The translations under genes and the position numbers were made by a program. Positions 1,818 to 42,893 of a DNA stretch of 42,984 nt are shown here, in pieces; positions within the stretch are counted from its first letter, which is position 1, and each line of letters starts with the position of its first letter. The notes under the pieces were generated by a model that had not been told where the DNA came from, did no database searches, and saw only the letters and a program-made list of their open reading frames with translations. The DNA lies in the IMG/VR virus record IMGVR_UViG_3300045988_157988, positions 1 through 42,984 of that record, one strand, 5' to 3'. The DNA comes from a virus.

Positions 1818-2582
1818 ATGAACGATTTACAAATTTTTAGAAATGACAATTTTGGAGAGGTAAGGACTTTGATAGTAAATGATGAGCCTTATTTTGTAGC
1901 AAAAGATGTGGCAGATATATTAGGTTATCAAAATGGTAGCAGAGATATAAATATACACGTTGAAGAAGAAGATAGGCTGAAGTACAAAATCAGTACTTCA
2001 GGTCAATTAAGAGAACAAATACTAATCAATGAAAGTGGTCTTTACAGTTTAATTTTATCAAGTAAGTTACCACAAGCGAAGCAATTTAAAAAATGGGTTA
2101 CAAGCGAGGTAATACCAACGATTAGAAAACACGGAGCATATATGACAGGTGAAACTTTAGAACAAGCCTTAACAAGCCCGGACTTTTTAATTCAGTTAGC
2201 AACAAAACTAAAAGAGGAGCAAGAAAAGAACTTGAATTTACAAGCTATCAATTCAAGATTAGAGGTTGAAAATGAGATAATGCAACCTAAAGCAGAATAT
2301 TTTGATGAGCTAGTCGCAAGAAATTTATTAACTAATTTTAGAGATACGGCAAAAATGTTCCAAATAAAGCAAAATGAATTTATTAAATTTTTACTAGATA
2401 AAAAGTACATTTATAGAGATAACAAAGGTAAGTTATTACCTTATGCTAGTAAAAATACAGGACTTTTTGAAATAAAAGAAACTTTAAACTTTAAGACAGA
2501 TTTTAAAACAACTCAAACACTGATAACTCCGTTAGGACGTGAACATTTTAGAGTTTTAGTAGCTGGTTTAAAAAATAATTAA
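1818..2582 (+). CDS. Phage antirepressor with an N-terminal Bro-N domain and a C-terminal KilA-C domain.
   Basis: FGEVRTLIVNDEPYFVAKDVADILGY is a classic Bro-N N-terminus. The C-terminal AEYFDELVARNLL...GLFEIKE segment resembles KilAC. Start trimmed to the ATG at 1818 behind an AAAGGGGAGAAA RBS. Confidence 0.75.
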   Translation: MNDLQIFRNDNFGEVRTLIVNDEPYFVAKDVADILGYQNGSRDINIHVEEEDRLKYKISTSGQLREQILINESGLYSLILSSKLPQAKQFKKWVTSEVIPTIRKHGAYMTGETLEQALTSPDFLIQLATKLKEEQEKNLNLQAINSRLEVENEIMQPKAEYFDELVARNLLTNFRDTAKMFQIKQNEFIKFLLDKKYIYRDNKGKLLPYASKNTGLFEIKETLNFKTDFKTTQTLITPLGREHFRVLVAGLKNN

Positions 2583-2599
2583 TAATGAGGAGAAAAAAT

Positions 2600-2797
2600 A
2601 TGTATTATGTAAAATCAAAAATTAAGGATTTAGAAATTAATATTGAAATCGAGGACAATGTATATACAAAATGCAATGAATGTGGTCGAGAAATAAGTAT
2701 AGACTTATTTGAACATTTTGATAGTGGTTGTGATTTATGTTCTACCGTTTGTTTTTGTTCAGAATGTTCTAAGAAAATGAAAAAACTTAATAAATAA
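2600..2797 (+). CDS. Small cysteine-rich protein, putative zinc finger.
   Basis: Three spaced cysteine pairs: CNECG, CDLC and CSEC. RBS AATGAGGAG. Confidence 0.5.
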   Translation: MYYVKSKIKDLEINIEIEDNVYTKCNECGREISIDLFEHFDSGCDLCSTVCFCSECSKKMKKLNK

Positions 2798-2815
2798 AGA
2801 AAAGAGGATTTTGAT

Positions 2816-3460
2816 ATGAATAAATTTAAAAAATACTGTCCGAATGTGTGGATAGCTGAATGTGAAGAAGAATACGAGAAAGGCGATATTATAGAGCTTA
2901 CCACAAAATACAATAAAGAAGTTGAATGTGAGGTTTATAACTTTTTAGGAAAGACATCAACCGAAAAATACTTGTATTCAATTGTTAGACTTGAAGATGA
3001 AAGTTATGCAGAAAAAAAAGCGAGAAAGTATAACAATGCAAGTGCTAAAAATATAGCTAAACGTGATGAAAAGTTTAATCAAGCACAAGAGGGCAGAGAT
3101 TTTTTAGTACTTGCAGAACCTATTAAGGTGGGTCATCACAGCGAAAGAGGACACAGAGCATTGCTTCAAAGAAACGAAAATAGAATGCGAAAGGCTTTTG
3201 AGTTTGAAGATAAAGCAAAGGAACAACAACGTAAAGCACAATACTGGGAAGCAAAAGCAAAAAAAATAACTTTAGCAATGCCGGAAAGTTTAGAATACTT
3301 TGAATATGAACTTGAAAAGGCAGAAAAACATCACAAAGACTTAAAATACAATCCACAAAAAAGGCAACATTCTTACGATTTAACTTATGCAAAAAAGGCT
3401 GTAAATGAGTTAAAGAAAAAGGTTGAAATAGCAAAAATGTTATGGGGCGAAAATGAATAG
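2816..3460 (+). CDS. Hypothetical phage protein, possibly DUF3560-like with a VGHHSE motif.
   Basis: GAGGAT RBS. Conserved-looking GHHSERGHRA motif followed by a KE-rich helical tail. The family assignment is from memory and unverified. Confidence 0.4.
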   Translation: MNKFKKYCPNVWIAECEEEYEKGDIIELTTKYNKEVECEVYNFLGKTSTEKYLYSIVRLEDESYAEKKARKYNNASAKNIAKRDEKFNQAQEGRDFLVLAEPIKVGHHSERGHRALLQRNENRMRKAFEFEDKAKEQQRKAQYWEAKAKKITLAMPESLEYFEYELEKAEKHHKDLKYNPQKRQHSYDLTYAKKAVNELKKKVEIAKMLWGENE

Positions 3461-3916: not shown

Positions 3917-4126
3917 ATGGAAGAATTACAAAACGATATTATAAATAGTCAAATTTTAAATATTTTAAATAAGAAACGAATTGAAGATAAAATCGAAGAA
4001 AATAGAAAAGTAGAGGTACAAAAAAATGAAAGACGAACAAGTGATAACCGTAGTATTTTTGCTATTGTTATGGGGGTTATTGGGTTTAATTATTTGCTAT
4101 TACTTGTAATAGGAAGATTAATATAA
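3917..4126 (+). CDS. Small protein with a C-terminal transmembrane helix.
   Basis: ATG at 3917 follows a GGAGG RBS. Hydrophobic C-terminus IFAIVMGVIGFNYLLLLVIG. Confidence 0.45.
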   Translation: MEELQNDIINSQILNILNKKRIEDKIEENRKVEVQKNERRTSDNRSIFAIVMGVIGFNYLLLLVIGRLI

Positions 4127-4139
4127 TAGGAGGATTTAT

Positions 4140-6077
4140 ATGCAAGAATTAATTTTAAAAAGTTTGAAATTACAAAATTTCAAAGGCATTAAAGATTTAG
4201 AAATAAACTTTAATGATGAAACAGTTATATCAGGAGCAAATGCAACGGGAAAGACAACGATATTTGACGCTTATAGTTGGTTGTTGTGGGATAAAGACAG
4301 TTTTAATCGTAAAGACTTTAATATAAAGCCTTTTGCAGAAAATGGAGAGGTTAAACATGGTCTTGAAACTGTTGTAACTGGAGTGTTTGAGGTAGAGGGT
4401 TCAATTATTGAACTTATGAAAAATTATCACGAAAAATGGACTAAAAAAAGAGGTAATGCCGACCTAGTTTTTGAGGGAAACACAACAGACTATTATATAA
4501 ATTCTGTACCAATCAAAAAATCAGAATACAATGCAAGAATAGAAAGTTTAATAAGTGAAAGAGAGTTTAATTTATTATCTAATCCGATTTATTTCAATCA
4601 AATTTTAGATAAAAAAGAACGTAGAGATGTATTGTTATCTTTAATAACAGACGTTAAAAAAGAGGACGTTTTAGTTTGTTTTGAGGACTTAAAAGAATTA
4701 GACTTAGACAACTACAAAATTGATGAAATAAAGGCTATGGCAAAAGCTACATCAAAGAAAATTAACAAAGATATTGAAGATATACCCGTTAGAATTTCAG
4801 AACTTGAAAATACAAAGAAAGATTATAACTTTAAAGAACTTGAAAGCGAAAAAACAGAACTTGAAAAAGAACTAAAAAACATTGATAACTTAATTTTAAA
4901 ATCTTCTAAAAGTGCTGATATTATCACAGAGAAAAACAACTTGATACAAGATTATTCAAACAGAATGAGAGATATAAAAAGAGAAGTTGACGACTTTAAC
5001 GAAGATGAAGAAAGAAAGATTTTAAGAAGTTTTAAAGAGAAAAAAGAAATTTTTGAAGATACAAAAAATGAACTTAAGAAATCTTTAAGACGTCAAGAGG
5101 ATAAGCTGGATAACTTAAAAGAAGAAGTTAAGCACTTTGAAAAGTTGATAGCAAAGAATGATGAAGATATAAAAACTTTACGTCAAAAATGGGTTGATAT
5201 AAATTCAAAAGAATTTGACGGAAGTTTAGTTTGTCCGACTTGTAAAAGAGAGTTTGAAGAAGATAAGAAAGATGAGATTTTAGCAGATTTTAACAAGCAT
5301 AAAGCAGAAAATCTTTTAAAACTTGAAAAAGAAGCCAACGAAGTAAAAGAAGAAACAGAAGAATTTACAAAGAAACTTGAAAAGACAAGAAAAGACAAAG
5401 ATGAAGTACAAGAAAGAATTAAAGAACTCGAAAAAGAATATAACGACTTTGGAGAGTTTGAAGATGAAAAACCTGTATTTGTTAAGAAAGAATTACCTGA
5501 TAGTTATTTCAATTTAGAAAAAGAAATTAAAAAAATTAAAGAAGATTTACAGTCTATTTCAGAAAATGACAATACAAATCTTTTAGAAGATAAAAAAAGG
5601 ATAAATGACGAAATAAACGCATTAAATTCCAGAATACAATACAAAGTTTTAAATGAAGAATTAGAACAAAAAATAAACGTTTACATTCAAAAAGAAAAGG
5701 AACTTGCGACGCAATTTGAAGAACAATCAAGAGTATTATATTTGTGTGATGAGTATATCAAAATTTACACAAATTTAGTACAAGATAAAGTTAATGACTT
5801 GTTCAAAGTTGTAAACTTTAGACTTTTTGAAACTCAAGTAAATGGAGAATTAAAAGAAACTTGCGAATCTACAGTAAACGGAGTTCCTTATAGTGATGTA
5901 AATAATGCAGGTAAAATCAACGCAGGTCTTGATGTTATAAATTCATTAAGTAAATTTATGCAAAAGAGAGTACCTATTTTTGTTGATAACGCTGAAAGTG
6001 TAAACAAGTTGATAGACGTAAATAGTCAAATAATAAAGCTATATGTTAGCGAAGAAAAAGAATTAAAAATTAAATAA
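4140..6077 (+). CDS. SbcC/SMC/RecF-like AAA ATPase with coiled-coil; the recombination-associated ATPase that precedes RecT in many phages.
   Basis: N-terminal Walker A GANATGKTT in an SMC_N-like context (LKLQNFKGIKDLEINF). Long central KE-rich coiled-coil with a CPTC zinc hook-like motif. C-terminal Walker B/D-loop-like segment IFVDNAESV. Confidence 0.7.
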   Translation: MQELILKSLKLQNFKGIKDLEINFNDETVISGANATGKTTIFDAYSWLLWDKDSFNRKDFNIKPFAENGEVKHGLETVVTGVFEVEGSIIELMKNYHEKWTKKRGNADLVFEGNTTDYYINSVPIKKSEYNARIESLISEREFNLLSNPIYFNQILDKKERRDVLLSLITDVKKEDVLVCFEDLKELDLDNYKIDEIKAMAKATSKKINKDIEDIPVRISELENTKKDYNFKELESEKTELEKELKNIDNLILKSSKSADIITEKNNLIQDYSNRMRDIKREVDDFNEDEERKILRSFKEKKEIFEDTKNELKKSLRRQEDKLDNLKEEVKHFEKLIAKNDEDIKTLRQKWVDINSKEFDGSLVCPTCKREFEEDKKDEILADFNKHKAENLLKLEKEANEVKEETEEFTKKLEKTRKDKDEVQERIKELEKEYNDFGEFEDEKPVFVKKELPDSYFNLEKEIKKIKEDLQSISENDNTNLLEDKKRINDEINALNSRIQYKVLNEELEQKINVYIQKEKELATQFEEQSRVLYLCDEYIKIYTNLVQDKVNDLFKVVNFRLFETQVNGELKETCESTVNGVPYSDVNNAGKINAGLDVINSLSKFMQKRVPIFVDNAESVNKLIDVNSQIIKLYVSEEKELKIK

Positions 6078-6092
6078 AAAAGGAGATAGAAA

Positions 6093-6971
6093 ATGAACGA
6101 AATTAAGAAAATTGAAGACGGGAAAAAAGCTTTAAGTCCTGCAAACAGAATGAAAGGCTTAGTAAGTAATAATCAAGTACAAGAAATGTTTAAGAACTCA
6201 TTAGGAGAAAATGCAGGAGCATTCTTATCAAGTTTAATAGAATTATACAGCGACCCAACAGGGATGTTGAAAGATTGTAACCCAAACGAAGTTGTTATGG
6301 AGGCGTTAAAATCTGCAACATTAAAACTACCAATCAATAAAAATTTAGGTTTTGCATATATTATACCTTTCAACAAAAGCGAAAAAACACCTAATGGGTG
6401 GAAAAAAACAATACACCCTCAATTCCAAATAGGATATAAAGGTTTCATTCAATTAGCAATGAGAACAGGACAATATAAGACTATAAATTCAAATATGGTT
6501 TATGAGGGAATGGAAGTATCTGAAAATTATCTTACGGGAGAAATTGAAATTAAAGGCAAGAAAAAAAGCGATAAGATAATAGGTTATTTTAGTTATTTTA
6601 AACTTGTAAATGGTTTTGAAAAAATGATTTATTGGACTGTTGAACAAGTTGAAAATCACGCAAAGAAATTTAGTAAATCATATTCTGGTAGAGGTAATAA
6701 AGGCAATGTTTGGACTGATAATTTTGATGAAATGGCTTTAAAAACTGTTACCAAGAGAATTTTATCAAAATATGGAGTTTTAAGTGTTGAATTGCAAAAT
6801 GTAATTCAGGAAGAAACAGACAACGAACTTGCAGAAGAAATAGAGCAAAACGCAAATAAGAAAGAACTTGAAATTGTTGGACAAGTTGAAATTGAAGAAG
6901 TTGTACAAAACGTTGAAGAAATAAGCGATATTTCAAATTTAGAAGAAGTTACGGAAGAAGCTCCATTTTAG
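6093..6971 (+). CDS. recT: RecT-family single-strand annealing protein.
   Basis: FQIGYKGFIQLAMRTGQYKTINSNMVYEGMEV matches the RecT core (QfqiGYkG...l..rsG). Acidic C-terminal tail. Sits next to the ATPase and SSB. Confidence 0.8.
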   Translation: MNEIKKIEDGKKALSPANRMKGLVSNNQVQEMFKNSLGENAGAFLSSLIELYSDPTGMLKDCNPNEVVMEALKSATLKLPINKNLGFAYIIPFNKSEKTPNGWKKTIHPQFQIGYKGFIQLAMRTGQYKTINSNMVYEGMEVSENYLTGEIEIKGKKKSDKIIGYFSYFKLVNGFEKMIYWTVEQVENHAKKFSKSYSGRGNKGNVWTDNFDEMALKTVTKRILSKYGVLSVELQNVIQEETDNELAEEIEQNANKKELEIVGQVEIEEVVQNVEEISDISNLEEVTEEAPF

Positions 6972-6980
6972 AGGTTAAAA

Positions 6981-7700
6981 ATGATTGATGTAAAAGTAAT
7001 AGGCTCAGGTAGTAGTGGAAACTGCTACCTGTGCAATGTCAACGGCACACAATTACTTTTAGAGTGTGGGTTGTCATTTAAAACAATTCAAAAAGCCTTA
7101 AATTTTAAACTTAGCGATGTGTCGGCTTGTCTAGTAACCCACGAACACGGCGACCACTCAAAAGCCGTAAAAGACTTGATGAAAAACGGAATTAATGTAT
7201 ATGCAACAAAAGGAACTTTTGAAGCTTTAAATGTTTCAGGACACAGAGCAATATCTTTTAGAAAAGACAAGGTTGATACTTATTGTTATCATTTTTTTAA
7301 CAGGTTTATGATATTGCCTTTTGAAGCCGTCCACGATGTAAGAGAGCCGGTCAGCTTTTATATACAAGATATACACACAAAAGAAAGCTTGCTATTTATA
7401 ACTGACACAGCATATATCAAGTACAAAATACCAAACGTTGATGTGCTAATGGTTGAGTGTAACTATGTAAAATCAGTAATTGACAAGAAAGTGCAAGACG
7501 GAAAGTTACATCACGTTTTAAGAAATAGAATTGTTAAAAATCATATGAGTTTAGAAACTTTAAAAGAGGATTTAAAACAAGCAGATTTAAGCAATTTAAA
7601 AGAAATGTATGTACTGCATTTAAGCGACAGTAACAGTGATGAAAAATATATTCTGGAAGAATTACAAAAGCTGACAGGAAAATCGATAAAAATAGCTTAA
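6981..7700 (+). CDS. Metallo-beta-lactamase fold hydrolase, the usual phage recombination-module partner.
   Basis: HEHGDH (HxHxDH) motif and a glycine-rich N-terminus VIGSGSSGNCY. Confidence 0.75.
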   Translation: MIDVKVIGSGSSGNCYLCNVNGTQLLLECGLSFKTIQKALNFKLSDVSACLVTHEHGDHSKAVKDLMKNGINVYATKGTFEALNVSGHRAISFRKDKVDTYCYHFFNRFMILPFEAVHDVREPVSFYIQDIHTKESLLFITDTAYIKYKIPNVDVLMVECNYVKSVIDKKVQDGKLHHVLRNRIVKNHMSLETLKEDLKQADLSNLKEMYVLHLSDSNSDEKYILEELQKLTGKSIKIA

Positions 7701-37948: not shown

Positions 37949-38638
37949 ATGAATTTGTATGTTTATTCTGATGAATCAGGAGTTTTTGATTATATAAATA
38001 ATAAGTATTTTATATTTGCAGGAATAATCCTTTTTTCTAAAGAAGAAAAAGAAAATTTAGAAAGAAAATATAGAACTATAGAAAAAGATATTTATAAAAA
38101 TAATAACTATGTTGGAGAATTAAAAGCTAAAGTTTTGAAATATAAAGAAAAACGTAGATTATATAATATTTTTAAAAATGCAAATAAATTTTGTTGTATA
38201 ATAAAACAAGAAAAGATTTTAAAAAATATATATTCTGATAAAAAAAGTAAACAAAGATACTTGGATTACGCTTTTAAAATATCGATAAAAGAAGCTTTTA
38301 AAAGTATGATAAAACAAAATTTAATAGATGAAAATGAAATAGATAATATTATAGTATATTGTGATGAACATACAACGGCTACAAACGGAAAGTATGAACT
38401 TAGGGAAGCCTTGCTAAACGAGTTTAAGCGCGGAACTTTTAATAGAGAATGGAATATATTTTATGAACCGTTATTTAAAAATATGAAAGATGTAAAATTA
38501 AAATATTGTAATTCAGAACATACTACTTTAGTAAGAGGAGCTGATATAATAGCTAATAAAGTATATGCAATAGCTGTAAATGAAAACTGGGAAGTTTTAA
38601 GGAATTTAGAAAACATGAATATAAAAAAATTACCATAA
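37949..38638 (+). CDS. DUF3800-family protein (moron inside the lysis cassette).
   Basis: N-terminal LYVYSDESG and C-terminal CDEHTTA...LVRGADIIANKVY match the two conserved DUF3800 motif regions. 229 aa. Has its own promoter. Confidence 0.6.
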   Translation: MNLYVYSDESGVFDYINNKYFIFAGIILFSKEEKENLERKYRTIEKDIYKNNNYVGELKAKVLKYKEKRRLYNIFKNANKFCCIIKQEKILKNIYSDKKSKQRYLDYAFKISIKEAFKSMIKQNLIDENEIDNIIVYCDEHTTATNGKYELREALLNEFKRGTFNREWNIFYEPLFKNMKDVKLKYCNSEHTTLVRGADIIANKVYAIAVNENWEVLRNLENMNIKKLP

Positions 38639-38686
38639 AGCAATTATCAAAAATGATAGTTGCTTTTTTAATGCAAGAAAGGGAAA

Positions 38687-39598
38687 ATGACTATGAATAA
38701 AAACGATAAAATGATTGGGTGGTTCAAAGAAAGACAAGGCAAAGTAACTTATTCAATGAATAATAGAACGGGGAGCAAGAGTTATGACTGTTCAAGTGCT
38801 GTATATTATGCAGTGTGTGAGGCTTTAGGTTTGAAAGTTGAATATCCAAAGAATACAGCAACTTTACCAGAGTGGCTTTTGCGAAATGGCTTTGAAAGAA
38901 TTGCTGTAAATAGTGAGTGGACGGCTGAACGTGGAGATATAGTAATTTGGTCTAAACGTAAAGGTGTTGCTGGAGCAGAGGCACATACAGGAATTTTTAC
39001 AGATAATTCTCATATCATACATTGTAATTATAATGCAAATGGAATAAGCGAAAATACTGAAAATAGCTTGTCAAGTTTATATAATTGGTATTATGAAGTA
39101 TTTAGATTAAACGACAACAGCCCTACTTGGCAATCAAATTCTACAGGTTGGTGGTATGAACATTCAGACGGAAGTTATCCGCAAAGTGAATGGAAAAAAA
39201 TAGACAATGAATGGTACTATTTTGACGAAAAAGGTTACGCTTATCAAAATAAATGGCTTAATTATGAAAATAATTGGTACTATTTTGATAATAGCTGTAA
39301 AATGTGTTTTGGCAAATGGAAGTACATTCAAGAAACTTGGTATTACTTTGATAATGACGGAATAACTTATCAAAATAAATGGTTAAAATATAAAGATAAA
39401 TGGTACTACTTTGATAATAGTTGTAAGATGTTGAAAGATACATTTTTTAATGCAGGAAACGAAAGATTTTATGTAAATAGTGATGGTATTTGCGATTTGT
39501 CTTATACTAAGAAAATCAACAACAAAACTTATGCTTTTGACGAAAGAGGAGCTTTGATAACAAGCAAAGTTATAAACGAAAAAGGCGAAATAGAATAG
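38687..39598 (+). CDS. Endolysin: Amidase_5 (Pal-like N-acetylmuramoyl-L-alanine amidase) with C-terminal choline-binding repeats.
   Basis: The N-terminus GKVTYSMNNRTGSKSYDCSS...ERGDIVIWSKRKGVAGAEAHTGIFTDNSHIIHCNYNANGIS aligns with the pneumococcal phage Dp-1 Pal amidase motifs. The C-terminus has four or more W-Y-Y-F-D repeats (CW_binding_1). Confidence 0.8.
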   Translation: MTMNKNDKMIGWFKERQGKVTYSMNNRTGSKSYDCSSAVYYAVCEALGLKVEYPKNTATLPEWLLRNGFERIAVNSEWTAERGDIVIWSKRKGVAGAEAHTGIFTDNSHIIHCNYNANGISENTENSLSSLYNWYYEVFRLNDNSPTWQSNSTGWWYEHSDGSYPQSEWKKIDNEWYYFDEKGYAYQNKWLNYENNWYYFDNSCKMCFGKWKYIQETWYYFDNDGITYQNKWLKYKDKWYYFDNSCKMLKDTFFNAGNERFYVNSDGICDLSYTKKINNKTYAFDERGALITSKVINEKGEIE

Positions 39599-39618
39599 GG
39601 GCTATCAAGCCCCTTTTT
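39597..39618. terminator. Terminator hairpin between the convergent lysin gene and the minus-strand cassette.
   Basis: Stem AGGGGCT/AGCCCCT, loop ATCA, then TTTTT. Confidence 0.6.
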
Positions 39619-39988
39619 ATTTTTCGAATTTTATTATATTTTCAATATCAAAATTATATTCAGTAGTTGCAAATTCTATTTCTATAAATCCATCTTTTAA
39701 TTCTTCGACTTCTTCTCTTGTAAAAAATTCATTTTCTATAATTTCTTCAAAAGGAAGAATATCTTCATCTTTATATAAATAAAACTCAACTTTACCATTA
39801 CAATTTACAAAAGTTTTTAAAATACAATTTTTATTTTCATTAAATACTTCAAATTCACACAATCTATCATTTTCTTTCCAATCAAAATGTGTTCCGTCGT
39901 TGCCGTTCATATAACGAATTACACTTTCTTTTTTTAAAATTTCATTTATTTTATCTCTCAATTTAATTAATTGTTCTTTCATTTTCAA
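39617..39988 (-). CDS. Hypothetical acidic protein (123 aa), accessory cassette gene 4.
   Basis: Has its own copy of the palindrome-containing promoter. RBS GGAAAGGGGAT. Confidence 0.55.
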   Translation of the reverse strand: MKMKEQLIKLRDKINEILKKESVIRYMNGNDGTHFDWKENDRLCEFEVFNENKNCILKTFVNCNGKVEFYLYKDEDILPFEEIIENEFFTREEVEELKDGFIEIEFATTEYNFDIENIIKFEK

Positions 39989-40014
39989 AATCCCCTTTCC
40001 TTATTGTAATTATA

Positions 40015-40042
40015 TTATAACATATTATTAATAATATGTCAA
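40015..40042 (-). promoter_or_regulatory. Consensus sigma-A promoter TTGACA, 16-nt spacer, TATAAT, with the 20-bp perfect palindrome ACATATTATTAATAATATGT (40020..40039) in the spacer. Copy 1.
   Basis: Minus-strand -35 at 40042..40037 and -10 at 40020..40015. The palindrome was read directly from the sequence. Confidence 0.65.
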
Positions 40043-40062
40043 TACTTTTTTTACAACTTTTT

Positions 40063-40269
40063 TTAAAATTTTTTTAAATTTTCTTTAATTAATTCTTGCA
40101 ATTCTTCCAAATCCTCTTTTTTAGCTAATGCTCGTATAAAACCCCTAGCATTAGAACGTCTGTTTAAATAGTTTTTGTATTCTTTATTTTTTTCAATCCA
40201 TCTTTTGTCAGCTTCTTTTTGTTGTTGAGCAGTTTTGTAACCTTTTCTTTTTTTATCTTTATTCTCCAT
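40063..40269 (-). CDS. Small basic protein (68 aa, K/R-rich); candidate DNA-binding regulator.
   Basis: Last gene of a three-gene minus-strand operon. The GGAGG RBS lies 13 nt upstream of the ATG. Confidence 0.45.
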   Translation of the reverse strand: MENKDKKRKGYKTAQQQKEADKRWIEKNKEYKNYLNRRSNARGFIRALAKKEDLEELQELIKENLKKF

Positions 40270-40270
40270 T

Positions 40271-40570
40271 TTATTTTAAAATCCTCCAAAATTTTTGAAA
40301 AATATTTTGTGCTTTTTCAATTTCAACAAAATTTTCAAAAACATCTTTGCTTAGCGTTGCATCACTCTTGATAACTATATGATGAAAGAAATTACTTTGA
40401 TATTTTGAATTTTCATTATCGTACATTGTAACGATACAATCACAAGCATTTTTATCTAAATCTATAAAGTATTCTTTTTTATTGAATACAATTTTTATTT
40501 TTTGAGTTTTCCCACACTCGAAATCGCTTAAAAATATAGTTTCTTTTTGTAAATCAAATTCTTTTTTCAT
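40271..40570 (-). CDS. Hypothetical protein (99 aa).
   Basis: RBS AAGGAGAT. Middle gene of the operon. Confidence 0.5.
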   Translation of the reverse strand: MKKEFDLQKETIFLSDFECGKTQKIKIVFNKKEYFIDLDKNACDCIVTMYDNENSKYQSNFFHHIVIKSDATLSKDVFENFVEIEKAQNIFQKFWRILK

Positions 40571-40588
40571 AATTTTTTATCTCCTTTT

Positions 40589-40960
40589 TTAATAAATTTT
40601 AACATTACACATTTCATGCATTTTCATAAAAGAATGTTTTTTAAAAGTACATTCACTATTTAATTGTTCTTCTGACAAAAATTCTAAATCTTCAAAAGTT
40701 ATATCATCTTTTTCAAAAAATAAGTTTTCAAATTTTTGTGAATTACTATTATAAGTTTTGAAATATTTTCTTTCTATTTCTGCATTCAAGCAATAAGCCC
40801 AGCTGTGTTCATCTCTCAAAACTCCAAATTCACATTTGAAATCGGGTACATAAATGACTTTATTTTTAGCAACAGCTATAACAAATGTTGAAAATCTTTC
40901 TCCACTTTTAGCATATAGTACATTATCAATTGCAAATCTAACTTTAACACTTTCTTTCAT
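40589..40960 (-). CDS. Hypothetical protein (123 aa), first gene of the minus-strand operon.
   Basis: Preceded by the identical promoter/operator/RBS module (GGAAAGGGGAT). Confidence 0.55.
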   Translation of the reverse strand: MKESVKVRFAIDNVLYAKSGERFSTFVIAVAKNKVIYVPDFKCEFGVLRDEHSWAYCLNAEIERKYFKTYNSNSQKFENLFFEKDDITFEDLEFLSEEQLNSECTFKKHSFMKMHEMCNVKIY

Positions 40961-40990
40961 TTTTATATCCCCTTTCCTTATTATATTTAT

Positions 40991-41019
40991 ATTATAACAT
41001 ATTATTAATAATATGTCAA
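40991..41019 (-). promoter_or_regulatory. Second copy of the promoter: TTGACA, 17-nt spacer, TATAAT, with the same 20-bp palindrome at 40997..41016.
   Basis: About 60 nt of near-identity with the 39985-40045 copy, differing by one A. Confidence 0.65.
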
Positions 41020-41064
41020 CACTTTTTACAAAAAAAATTGAAAAAATTTAAGATTTTTTTATTG

Positions 41065-41092
41065 TTTTTTTTGTTACTTTTTTGTTACTTAT
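41065..41092. repeat. Tandem TTTTTTGTTACTT repeats; candidate integrase arm-type site (one attP arm).
   Basis: TTGTTACTT occurs at 41071 and 41083. It recurs at 41231 on the other side of the int terminator. Confidence 0.35.
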
Positions 41093-41198: not shown

Positions 41199-41226
41199 AA
41201 AGCGTTGTAATATCAACGCTTTTTGT
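41199..41226. terminator. Bidirectional terminator hairpin downstream of int.
   Basis: Stem AGCGTTG/CAACGCT flanked by an A-run upstream and a T-run downstream. Confidence 0.5.
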
Positions 41227-41248
41227 ATTTTTGTTACTTTTGTGTTAT

Positions 41249-42241
41249 TTATTTTAAAAGATTGATTGTATCTCTAAGCTCATCAAGTGTCTTGTGAGTA
41301 TATACTCTATTACCTACATCTTTACTTTTATGACCCATTAGTAAGTCGATACATTTTTGATTACCTCCTGCACTATCTAATTTACTTCTAAATGTATGTC
41401 TTGTTTCGTGCACTGTATGATGAGGGAATATTTTTTTAAAGTTAGCGCAAAAGGTAACTTTTTTATAATTGTTTATTAAATATTTATTATCTTCGTTGTA
41501 AAATTCTTGTACTATATCAAAGATATAATTGTGAATTGGTATTATTCTGTTTTTTCCGTTTTCTGTTTTTATTCCACCCTTTATAGTTCTTTCTTCAAGA
41601 TTGATATTTTTGTTTTCTATTTTAAAAAGTTCACTTCCTCTCATTCCTGTATAGAGTAACAATAAAATTACTTTGTATGTTAAATTTTGCCTATTATTTT
41701 TAACTTTTTCTATTTCTTCATCTGTTAATATCGTTCGAGTTGTTTCAGGTGTTTTATCAGTAGTTAATAACGATGAATAACTAACTTGTATTATTTCAGT
41801 TTCTAAAGCTAATTTGTCAAGATGATTAAATAAGTTTTTTATTTGTGATTGAGTTGAATAACTTAAATTACTGTTATCTATTATATCTTGTATATCATAA
41901 GACTTTATTTCACGATATACCTTATCATAAAGTGGTTTAACGTGATTGTTATATGCTGATATTAAGCATTTTTGATTACAAATACCTAGTTTATTTAATT
42001 TCTTTTCGTAAAACAACTCCCATAACTCTTTTAAAGTGGTTGTTGACTTGTCTAGGTCATAAGGATTTTTATTATATTCAGCAAGGGCAATATTTGCCTC
42101 TTGTTTTGTTCTATAATAGCCGATTGGCTTTATAATTTGCTTTCCGTCATCACTCCAACCCACAGTGATTTTAGCCATATATGGGTTACGTCTTTTTCCT
42201 GATAGCTTTACAACACTACCGTATCCGTTAGGGTTTCTCAT
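41249..42241 (-). CDS. int: Tyrosine site-specific integrase.
   Basis: C-terminal catalytic region HETRHTFRS...LLMGHKS...VYTH with the R/H-x-x-R/Y pattern. 330 aa, at the edge of the lysogeny module. Confidence 0.85.
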   Translation of the reverse strand: MRNPNGYGSVVKLSGKRRNPYMAKITVGWSDDGKQIIKPIGYYRTKQEANIALAEYNKNPYDLDKSTTTLKELWELFYEKKLNKLGICNQKCLISAYNNHVKPLYDKVYREIKSYDIQDIIDNSNLSYSTQSQIKNLFNHLDKLALETEIIQVSYSSLLTTDKTPETTRTILTDEEIEKVKNNRQNLTYKVILLLLYTGMRGSELFKIENKNINLEERTIKGGIKTENGKNRIIPIHNYIFDIVQEFYNEDNKYLINNYKKVTFCANFKKIFPHHTVHETRHTFRSKLDSAGGNQKCIDLLMGHKSKDVGNRVYTHKTLDELRDTINLLK

Positions 42242-42359: not shown

Positions 42360-42893
42360 TTATTTTAAAACCTTTCCGTCATCTGTTTTATAAACTCCGT
42401 CTTTATACATATAGAATTCTTTTTGCTCATTTACTGAAAAATCTTGATTAAAAGTAGCTTCTATTATTAGGCTTGATGTATTTATATAGTAATCTTTTCC
42501 GTTATCTAAAGATAAAACGATATAGTTAATTCCGTTTTCTTTAAGTAAATTATCTAAATATTGTAAAATTTCTTTATGATTTTTTTCTTCAAAAATTATT
42601 GAAGTTGTTATTATTTTTGCAAAACCTTTACATTTTTTTGTTTGATTTTTTAAGATTGCTTTTATATTGTTTTGTTGTTTTTGTTCTTCTTCTTTTTTTC
42701 TTTTTTCTTCGTTTGCTTTTTGTTGCTCAGCAAGATGTTGTTGTTTTTCTTTTTCTTCTTTCTTTTCTTCAACTTTTTGTGTTGGTTGTTGTTTTTGTTC
42801 TGTTTGTTTAACTTCTTCTTTCTTTGTTTCTTGCTTTCCACAAGCTACTAACATTGTACTTGCTAACAATAACATTAAAAATCTTTTTTTCAT
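42360..42893 (-). CDS. Lipoprotein with a KE/Q-rich low-complexity linker; Ltp-like superinfection-exclusion candidate.
   Basis: Signal peptide plus lipobox MKKRFLMLLLASTMLVAC|GK, then a K/E/Q repeat region, then a globular C-terminus. Located between int and cI. Confidence 0.6.
   Translation of the reverse strand: MKKRFLMLLLASTMLVACGKQETKKEEVKQTEQKQQPTQKVEEKKEEKEKQQHLAEQQKANEEKRKKEEEQKQQNNIKAILKNQTKKCKGFAKIITTSIIFEEKNHKEILQYLDNLLKENGINYIVLSLDNGKDYYINTSSLIIEATFNQDFSVNEQKEFYMYKDGVYKTDDGKVLK

Follow-up and report, generated by a model that had tools for sequence, protein, structure and literature searches.

A probable acr-aca13-type counter-defence cassette with a duplicated promoter-operator module in a temperate Parvimonas phage

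The IMG/VR virus record IMGVR_UViG_3300045988_157988 was analysed over its whole length of 42,984 nucleotides (nt), which is called the window here. It carries a minus-strand cassette of four small genes between the endolysin gene and the attP/int region. An original prediction, made from the letters alone, had placed in this slot four small open reading frames (ORFs) driven by two copies of a consensus promoter with an embedded 20-base-pair (bp) perfect palindrome; the slot, the four ORFs and the two promoters are present as described. The gene order is P1, genes for proteins of 123, 99 and 68 amino acids (aa), then P2 and a gene for a protein of 121 aa. The 68-aa protein is, by its sequence, a homolog of Aca13, a repressor family without a helix-turn-helix (HTH). 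The locus is probably an acr-aca13-type counter-defence cassette of a temperate Parvimonas phage, in which Aca13 would repress its own expression together with that of three candidate immunity inhibitors.

Layout of the cassette and its duplicated promoter module

The features of the locus, in window positions, are as follows.

38687-39598, plus strand: endolysin gene, Amidase_5 plus choline-binding repeats, convergent with the cassette
39597-39614, both strands: bidirectional intrinsic terminator at the endolysin/cassette boundary, 7-bp stem with five G-C pairs, T runs on both strands
39617-39982, minus strand: gene for the 121-aa protein, candidate anti-CRISPR or anti-defence protein, net charge -13, motif YMNGNDGT-FD-x-EN-RLCEFEVF
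39991-40000, minus strand: ribosome-binding site (RBS) GGAAAGGGGA of the 121-aa gene, read from the sequence
40042-40014, minus strand: promoter P2, TTGACA-17-TG-TATAAT, 12/12 consensus, beginning 20 nt past the aca13 stop codon
40020-40039, no strand: putative operator O2, 20-bp palindrome ACATATTATTAATAATATGT, identical to O1
40063-40269, minus strand: gene for the 68-aa protein, aca13 homolog, isoelectric point (pI) 9.9, non-HTH repressor family
40271-40570, minus strand: gene for the 99-aa protein, candidate anti-CRISPR or anti-defence protein of an orphan family, optional in the cassette, stop codon 1 nt ahead of the aca13 start
40589-40960, minus strand: gene for the 123-aa protein, candidate anti-CRISPR or anti-defence protein of an orphan family
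40968-40977, minus strand: RBS GGAAAGGGGA of the 123-aa gene, in a 16-nt block identical in the second module copy
41019-40991, minus strand: promoter P1, TTGACA-17-TG-TATAAT, 12/12 consensus
40997-41016, no strand: putative operator O1, 20-bp perfect palindrome with core CATA-N10-TATG, inside the -35/-10 spacer
41020-41066, minus strand: A/T-rich conserved stretch 5' of P1, left boundary of the mobile module
41249-42241, minus strand: tyrosine integrase gene

Lying between the endolysin gene and attP/int, the cassette would be at the prophage end once the phage is integrated. No terminator was predicted in the interval between aca13 and P2, and Rfam and tRNA scans of the cassette region were empty. 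The most likely start of the distal gene is the ATG at 39982, which stands 8 nt past the RBS and is the start called in public contigs; it gives 121 aa, and the length of 123 aa first assigned to this gene corresponds to an alternative TTG start at 39988.

The palindrome occurs exactly twice in the window, with no further site within three mismatches. Dinucleotide shuffling gave an expectation of 0.05 copies, and none of 100 shuffles reached two. Perfect TTGACA-N16-18-TATAAT sites number three in the whole window against 0.07 expected, and the third is the early promoter at 865-893. The spacer had been given as 16 or 17 nt and is 17 nt in both copies. The duplication proposed earlier is real, and its extent is about 90 nt with 82% identity between the copies rather than about 60 nt. 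Within it a 33-nt block with the -35 element, operator and -10 element and the 16-nt RBS block are identical in the two copies, and the intervening bases differ.

A promoter-leader unit of 24 specified bases, TTGACA-17-TATAATATAA-N6-TAAGGAAAGGGGAT, was also found as an exact match in unrelated contigs: L048 (ERZ1643249 NODE-514, 620-1270), L044/L046 (IMGVR_UViG_3300031867_000738, about 2330-3200, minus strand) and L045/L047 (Ga0172378, 230-1360). The spacer inverted repeats differ among these contigs (CCACGCtttGCGTGG, TCCACGTGGA and the imperfect ACTCTTTTAAAGTAGT), and their coding DNA is more GC-rich, judged by eye. In L048 and L044 the unit drives small acidic genes followed by an HTH gene, an arrangement that looks acr-aca-like. 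One possibility is that the unit is a strong promoter which is portable and whose operators can be exchanged. The early promoter of the window also has AAAAGTATTGACA and TATAATATAAT, so the likeness may partly reflect a strong-promoter consensus.

The Aca13 homolog and operators at related loci

The 68-aa protein is basic (net charge +9) and matched the Streptococcus equinus reference Aca13, WP_094140901.1, with 66% identity in an alignment of 56 residues (expectation value (E) 4e-24); this reference sequence comes from Table S1 in Song et al. (NAR 2022). It also matched residues 87-141 of PDB chain 8ye6_B, labelled 'A32' (E 2.2e-11), and phrog_2277, a family with no assigned function (E 1e-21). 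Family alignment and a hidden Markov model (HMM) gave the signature W..(E/K)KN.E..NYL..RS.AR.FI....A..EDL.EL..LI, which the protein carries, and 80 phage records, of Streptococcus, Listeria, Clostridium and Lactobacillus, contained relatives by tblastn. A Pfam search of the protein returned no HTH or other domain. Its sequence places it in the named repressor family Aca13, so the earlier statement that none of the four proteins has a recognisable domain and that their regulator is unknown no longer holds. The suggestion that this basic protein could be the palindrome-binding autoregulator fits the homology.

Chain B of 8ye6 is AcrIIA32, in which the N-terminal domain is a Cas9 inhibitor and the C-terminal domain is Aca13, acting as a repressor without HTH (Song et al., NAR 2025, PMC12282945). 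In electrophoretic mobility shift assays the Aca13 domain binds an inverted repeat between the -35 element and the -10 element (PMC12282945). AcrIIA32 represses promoters upstream (s1) and downstream (s2) of its own gene in a Streptococcus uberis prophage, and the isolated Aca13 domain repressed s2 but not s1 (PMC12282945). Song et al. put it as 'two robust promoters ... a single Aca protein', the promoters being attenuated by the protein (PMC12282945).

The S. uberis locus, in phage 700P1 (L033), has the order s1 promoter, AcrIIA3, AcrIIA32, s2 promoter, AcrIIA27 and a convergent lysin. It resembles the window in position, between the endolysin gene and the prophage end and convergent with the endolysin gene, and in having two near-consensus promoters with 17-nt spacers, of which one lies upstream of aca13 and the other follows it immediately, both spacers containing the same inverted repeat. 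The regulators are homologous (through the C-terminal domain of AcrIIA32), and the promoter flanks AAAAAGTG-TTGAC and TATAATATAA are shared; the AAAAAGTG/AAAAAGTA motif just ahead of the -35 element is common to the window and the S. uberis acr-aca13 promoters. A second, downstream promoter with the same inverted repeat is seen in the window, in S. uberis 700P1 and in S. suis phi5218. The window differs from the S. uberis locus as follows: Aca13 is a stand-alone 68-aa protein without the fused Acr domain; CATA-N10-TATG, centred on TATTAATA, takes the place of GTACATGTAC as operator; three of the four residues that matter for DNA binding are changed; the cargo is unrelated to AcrIIA3, AcrIIA27 and AcrIIA32; and the host is Parvimonas, not Streptococcus. 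The reference Aca13 of S. equinus AR3, encoded beside AcrIIA32.1 (Song et al., NAR 2022), is 59 aa long, and shares the C-terminal EDL.ELQ.LI.ENLKKF with the 68-aa protein. Its neighbouring genes are different, and the Parvimonas protein has a basic N-terminus longer by nine residues (MENKDKKRKGYK).

The regions adjoining ten other Aca13-like genes, from Streptococcus and Listeria phages and low-GC gut-metagenome phage contigs, were surveyed for promoters. A near-consensus promoter with a 17-nt spacer and an inverted repeat in that spacer was present at nine of the ten loci. In S. uberis 700P1 both promoters read TTGACT-17-TATAAT with GTACATGTAC in the spacer; the inverted repeat is TAATACATGTATTA in Listeria B025, TATCATGTATGATA in S. 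thermophilus CHPC642, ACATGGTACATGCACCATGT in S. suis phi5218 (on both the upstream and the downstream side of the gene) and CATAGTATTAATACTATG in S. equinus Javan210. The window operator CATATTATTAATAATATG belongs to the Javan210 class, with the same TATTAATA centre. Its arms read CATAT-TATTAATA-ATATG, and those of L069, a related phage contig, and of Javan210 read CATAG-TATTAATA-CTATG; both forms are perfect palindromes. The operator of L069 is identical to that of Javan210, so that, relative to the window, a T>G change on one arm is paired with an A>C change on the other. A more distant Aca13-like gene (L034) has CATAG-N8-CTATG. Selection appears to act on the dyad symmetry, to judge from three observations: both arms changed together in L069 and Javan210, L034 has CATAG-N8-CTATG, and the variant cassettes L040, L041 and L049 and a copy on a mobilizable element keep the outer arms, although with one to three asymmetric changes. 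Judged from these sequences and backed by the compensatory variant, CATA-N10-TATG appears to be a second natural operator class for Aca13.

Two of the surveyed loci deserve separate description. In Listeria phage B025 (L051, DQ003639.1, locus 2001-2153), gp29/gp30 are annotated on one strand and the Aca13-like frame is on the other. It is located between the endolysin gene and attP/int, behind a TTGACT-17-TATAAT promoter with TAATACATGTATTA; the deposited annotation may be on the wrong strand. In Javan210 (L032, 2118-2710) the perfect palindrome is in a consensus promoter ahead of an unannotated 43-aa hydrophobic ORF. Next come a hairpin and another small hydrophobic ORF, and the record ends with the Aca13-like gene. 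This layout suggests that Aca13-type regulators may control cargo besides typical Acr proteins.

A CI-type repressor was also considered as the palindrome binder. The cI-cro region has no palindrome-like site, and the inverted repeats around the early promoter, CTTGAAT/ATTCAAG, are of a different type; control of the palindrome by CI is unlikely on this comparison. A search of viral and genome contigs for the exact 20-bp palindrome gave 15 scattered matches in unrelated taxa with no common context, which were judged to be due to chance. The cassette itself is present in several phages and on a mobilizable island.

Cargo families and distribution of the cassette

The 123-, 99- and 121-aa cargo proteins had no match in Pfam, PHROG, PADLOC, NCBIfam or PDB sequences, no tblastn match in 50,697 phage records, and no match in an exact-motif search against the AcrIIA24-32 table. 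None has a signal peptide or transmembrane segment: the maximal 19-residue Kyte-Doolittle hydropathy was 0.29-0.98, with no N-terminal hydrophobic stretch. This argues that they are neither secreted factors nor membrane exclusion proteins. Three of the encoded proteins had been described as acidic; that holds for the 121-aa protein (pI 4.5) and not for the 123-aa and 99-aa proteins, which are near neutral (pI 5.9 and 6.7). The CEF/CG motif that these proteins were said to share did not withstand pairwise BLAST, which found no similarity among the three (E 0.5-2.8). All three cargo genes are small, lie on a mobile element on the same strand as an aca gene and adjacent to it, and stand under promoters with the putative Aca operator.

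The 123-aa protein has three relatives among 1.84 billion representative proteins. One of them, P0101 (38% identity, whole-library E 3e-4, pairwise E 2e-11), is encoded by the gene that opens an operon of six at a prophage end; within it, gene five matches AcrVA2 (PDB 7ci1_A, E 1.5e-8) and the last gene encodes an HTH_3/MqsA-like regulator. Another relative adjoins an integrase (L070). The AcrVA2 operon resembles the window in having the 123-aa relative, which is the only distant one, a place at the prophage end beside a recombinase, small genes on one strand and a DNA-binding regulator as the last gene. Unlike the window, it has an HTH_3/MqsA-like regulator, direct instead of inverted promoter repeats, and more GC-rich coding DNA. 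The operon was seen in gut metagenome assemblies (L055-L059, for example GCA_948576815.1, CAPAEZ010000018.1, locus 4001-6856). Its AcrVA2 homolog has 374 aa, with a precomputed match to PF26125 (AcrVA2-like) that the local Pfam copy did not return, and the promoter region contains the direct repeat TGAACAT(T/A)GTGCA on either side of the -35 element.

The motif of the 121-aa protein listed above is the conserved core of its family. The gene for the relative P0098 immediately precedes a second Aca13-like gene, whose product is 42% identical to the 68-aa protein (E 1e-11), and both stand behind the CATAG-N8-CTATG promoter of a myovirus-type prophage (L034) that also has an orphan Dam methyltransferase. 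In this prophage (L034-L039, locus 5001-7330) the two genes are accompanied by three small genes, the methyltransferase gene and an endolysin gene. Other relatives, with 35-45% identity, are encoded in phage contigs of 55-153 kb. The family is widespread in phage accessory regions, and in the IMG/VR contigs of this size (L062-L068) its members are found amid long runs of small genes. In L062 the relative has a Phd/YoeB-like pair nearby (recognised by eye in the sequences), and in L066 two small basic proteins come next, which have no match to the Aca13 HMM. An AlphaFold2 (AF2) model of the 121-aa protein had a predicted local distance difference test score (pLDDT) of 74 and a predicted template modelling score of 0.72, and gave no significant fold match. 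For the 99-aa protein all homologs found have at least 75% identity and provide no independent context.

The host genus is Parvimonas (Tissierellia), as judged from exact-sequence look-ups of the cassette proteins and of chromosomal genes flanking integrated copies, which returned Parvimonas parva and Parvimonas sp. KA00067. The GC content of 23-34% is compatible with this genus. The window corresponds to assembly contig ERZ27250559 k119_158753, and a near-identical contig of 42,992 bp comes from a human gut metagenome. A megablast search against the 50,697 phage records found no DNA-level relative of the phage, and a distant-mode DNA search with the cassette end gave only short low-complexity matches.

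The block comprising endolysin and cassette (38663-41066) has 96-98% identity to phages with another tyrosine integrase (L016) or a serine recombinase (L021), so that the cassette block is found in phages with three different integration modules. It lies at prophage ends beside differing host genes, such as fur/znuA and NAD kinase. Identity with the phages that have other integrases, and with a mobilizable element, ends at 41058-41068. Gene content around Aca13 also varies. Most phages have all four genes, and the 121-aa gene is missing from L040-L042. L069 has an 85%-identical 123-aa gene and Aca13; the 99-aa gene is missing there, and the position of the 121-aa gene is taken by an unrelated acidic gene of 114 aa. 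In L040-L042 (L040, 5665-10522) the endolysin gene is followed by small and large terminase genes on the same strand, a 134-aa gene and then the first three cassette genes in a copy of 85% identity, which looks like a second element, a satellite or prophage remnant, integrated in tandem.

The three-gene core and P1 are also present on a mobilizable element of P. parva (L019, GCA_016552165.1, JACVDA010000020.1). Its neighbours there are a DnaJ-domain gene, nikA/mobC and a relaxase gene, followed by an insertion sequence, erm and aph. P1 of this element reads CTGACA, and there is one mismatch in its palindrome (ACATGTTATT...). A degenerate second promoter copy, CTAACA-17-TATAAT without the palindrome, precedes the insertion sequence. 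The element was seen in L019, L020, L022 and L025, and the insertion sequence is of the rve type; in L019, beyond it, are erm with a leader, aph, a deaminase gene and a gene for a metallo-beta-lactamase fold. DNA comparison of the element with PLSDB plasmids matched the erm gene only.

Proposed function, its alternatives and neighbouring genes

The cassette would share its logic with classical HTH-Aca operons, such as those of Aca1 in Pseudomonas phage JBD30 and Aca2 in Pectobacterium phage ZF40, which have a very strong early promoter, small cargo genes and, as the last gene, a repressor that binds inverted repeats overlapping the promoter and so caps expression. Aca13 differs in lacking the helix-turn-helix and in also controlling a second promoter downstream of its own gene. 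In the Parvimonas phage, entry of phage DNA or prophage induction would let the host sigma-A RNA polymerase fire from P1 and P2, resulting in a fast burst of the 123-, 99- and 121-aa proteins and the Aca13 homolog. The three cargo proteins would inhibit host immunity, most likely CRISPR-Cas. As Aca13 accumulates, it would bind as a dimer to CATA-N10-TATG in both -35/-10 spacers, block RNA polymerase and turn both units off. Such negative feedback would limit both the cost of two very strong promoters and the antisense transcription into the convergent endolysin gene. We favour counter-defence because the family of the regulator and the contexts of the cargo relatives point there; the cassette would serve the phage, not the lysogen. 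The anti-CRISPR or anti-defence activity of the cargo, and its targets, are what we infer from these associations.

Several observations weigh against this interpretation. Among the AcrIIA32 residues needed for repression, K92, W99, R107 and S111 (PMC12282945), only W99 is identical in the 68-aa protein (W24); R107 is conservatively replaced by K32, S111 by N36, and K92 by Q17, with K18 adjacent. The window operator also differs from GTACATGTAC of S. uberis, so binding of the 68-aa protein to the palindrome, and repression of P1 and P2, are put forward here as probable; the paired arm changes that keep the palindrome perfect give indirect support. The residue changes fit an altered operator specificity. 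At Javan210 the palindromic promoter drives a 43-aa hydrophobic peptide, and Aca13-like genes are not always beside Acr-like genes. No cargo protein resembles a validated Acr at the sequence level, and the AF2 model of the 123-aa protein (pLDDT 56) was too poor for a fold search. Of the three candidates to which Aca13 had led in the published work, two inhibited none of three Cas9s and a single one was active against any of them (PMC12282945). The promoter consensus by itself dictates six of the 20 palindromic positions.

The main alternative keeps the autorepression by Aca13 and assigns the cargo a target other than CRISPR-Cas, such as restriction-modification, abortive-infection or nucleotide-signalling defences, or host takeover. 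The absence of known Acr homologs among the cargo and the two inactive published candidates are consistent with it, as are the 121-aa relative in an island with an orphan Dam methyltransferase and the other 121-aa relatives, which occur in runs of small accessory genes of 55-153 kb phages with no Aca13-like gene nearby. Against this, all experimentally characterised cargo of Aca13 loci so far is type II-A Acr, and the 123-aa relative shares an operon with an AcrVA2 homolog. The host genus is also reported to have several CRISPR-Cas types: for Parvimonas micra, type III-B, II-A/III-A in other isolates, and spacers that match oral and intestinal Parvimonas phages are reported (PMC11076991). On balance we regard a target outside CRISPR-Cas as rather unlikely.

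Moron cassettes between the lysin gene and attR of streptococcal and staphylococcal prophages have their own promoter and terminator, and their toxin or virulence products are usually secreted and serve the lysogen. The original prediction favoured a toxin-like, abortive-infection or lysogenic-conversion system, and one could picture a cassette of benefit to the lysogen (toxin or toxin-antitoxin, abortive infection, superinfection exclusion or lysogenic conversion) that is silent until induction. The slot at the endolysin and attachment site is indeed the one where such prophages carry conversion genes, the promoters are strong and appear to be autoregulated, the Javan210 Aca13-like gene comes after a small hydrophobic, toxin-like peptide, and the 121-aa relative of L062 is near a Phd/YoeB-like pair. 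In the window, however, the same slot holds predicted cytoplasmic products and a regulator of an anti-CRISPR-associated family. None of the four proteins had a PADLOC match (0 matches) or a Pfam/NCBIfam match to defence or toxin families above threshold, and the cargo has neither signal peptides nor transmembrane segments. The core operon is also found beside a relaxase gene on the mobilizable element, which suits counter-defence on entry more than protection of a lysogen, and a candidate lipoprotein for exclusion is already encoded in the phage, in the interval from int to the cI-like repressor gene. Regulator family and cargo relatives point instead to counter-defence, and a role for the benefit of the lysogen seems very improbable.

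That the palindrome is no operator at all, and is a by-product of an A/T-only spacer between the ACA of the -35 element and the TGT of the extended -10 element that was recently duplicated, with promoters that are constitutive or under CI, is scarcely credible: an A/T-only 14-mer would be palindromic by chance in about 1 of 128 cases (our own estimate) and the two window copies are not mutually independent, but the independent loci L069 and Javan210 keep the dyad through changes on both arms, which contradicts an accident, inverted repeats with G or C stand at the same place in other Aca13 loci, the flanks of the two window copies diverged while the operator did not, and the cI-cro region offers no comparable site. 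The ends ACA and TGT double as the end of the -35 element and the TG of the extended -10 element, which leaves about 14 of the 20 symmetric positions that the promoter consensus does not set.

Under the counter-defence interpretation, the regulatory system is one already known, and the locus is of an expected type for specialists rather than a surprise. What is new is the host genus, the second operator class and the three uncharacterised cargo families. The Aca13 studies of Song et al. in 2022 and 2025 concerned Streptococcus elements only, and this locus extends the scheme to Parvimonas, an anaerobe of the mouth and gut with a link to colorectal cancer. Three inhibitor candidates emerge from it, one of them from a family (121 aa) also found in many large gut-phage contigs. 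The CATA-N10-TATG class bears on how a non-HTH repressor reads DNA and on Aca13-based tools. The core is also carried on a mobilizable erm/aph island, and if the cargo blocks immunity, it could help resistance genes to enter immune hosts. As a tentative extension, which we consider less likely than not, the three cargo proteins might be new inhibitor families, and one or more of them might act on a CRISPR-Cas system of Parvimonas (for example III-A, III-B or a divergent II-A Cas9) that is distinct from the streptococcal Cas9s studied so well; the TTGACA-17-TATAATATAA-N6-TAAGGAAAGGGGAT unit with its swappable operators might in addition serve as a portable expression unit by which counter-defence genes pass among phages and mobilizable elements in different Firmicutes.

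Three neighbouring features of the window were recorded in addition. A 177-aa ORF at 42360-42893 (minus strand), between the integrase and CI-type repressor genes, encodes a signal peptide, a lipobox-like LVAC and a long K/E/Q-rich linker. This is the usual position of a superinfection-exclusion lipoprotein, and the ORF matched nothing but lipoprotein-like PHROG families, and these weakly. A DUF3800 gene (229 aa, phrog_30113) at 37949-38638 (plus strand), between the holin region and the endolysin gene, is also present in L024 and is absent from the otherwise similar phages L016, L018 and L021. It has no PADLOC match and resembles an accessory gene that was inserted. The int terminator (41199-41222), in the interval from the integrase stop codon to the cassette, is flanked by a direct repeat, TTTTTGTTACTTTT(T/G)TGTTA, at 41068-41092 and 41228-41252. 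The repeat is kept at the prophage end in L024 and may represent integrase arm-type sites of attP.

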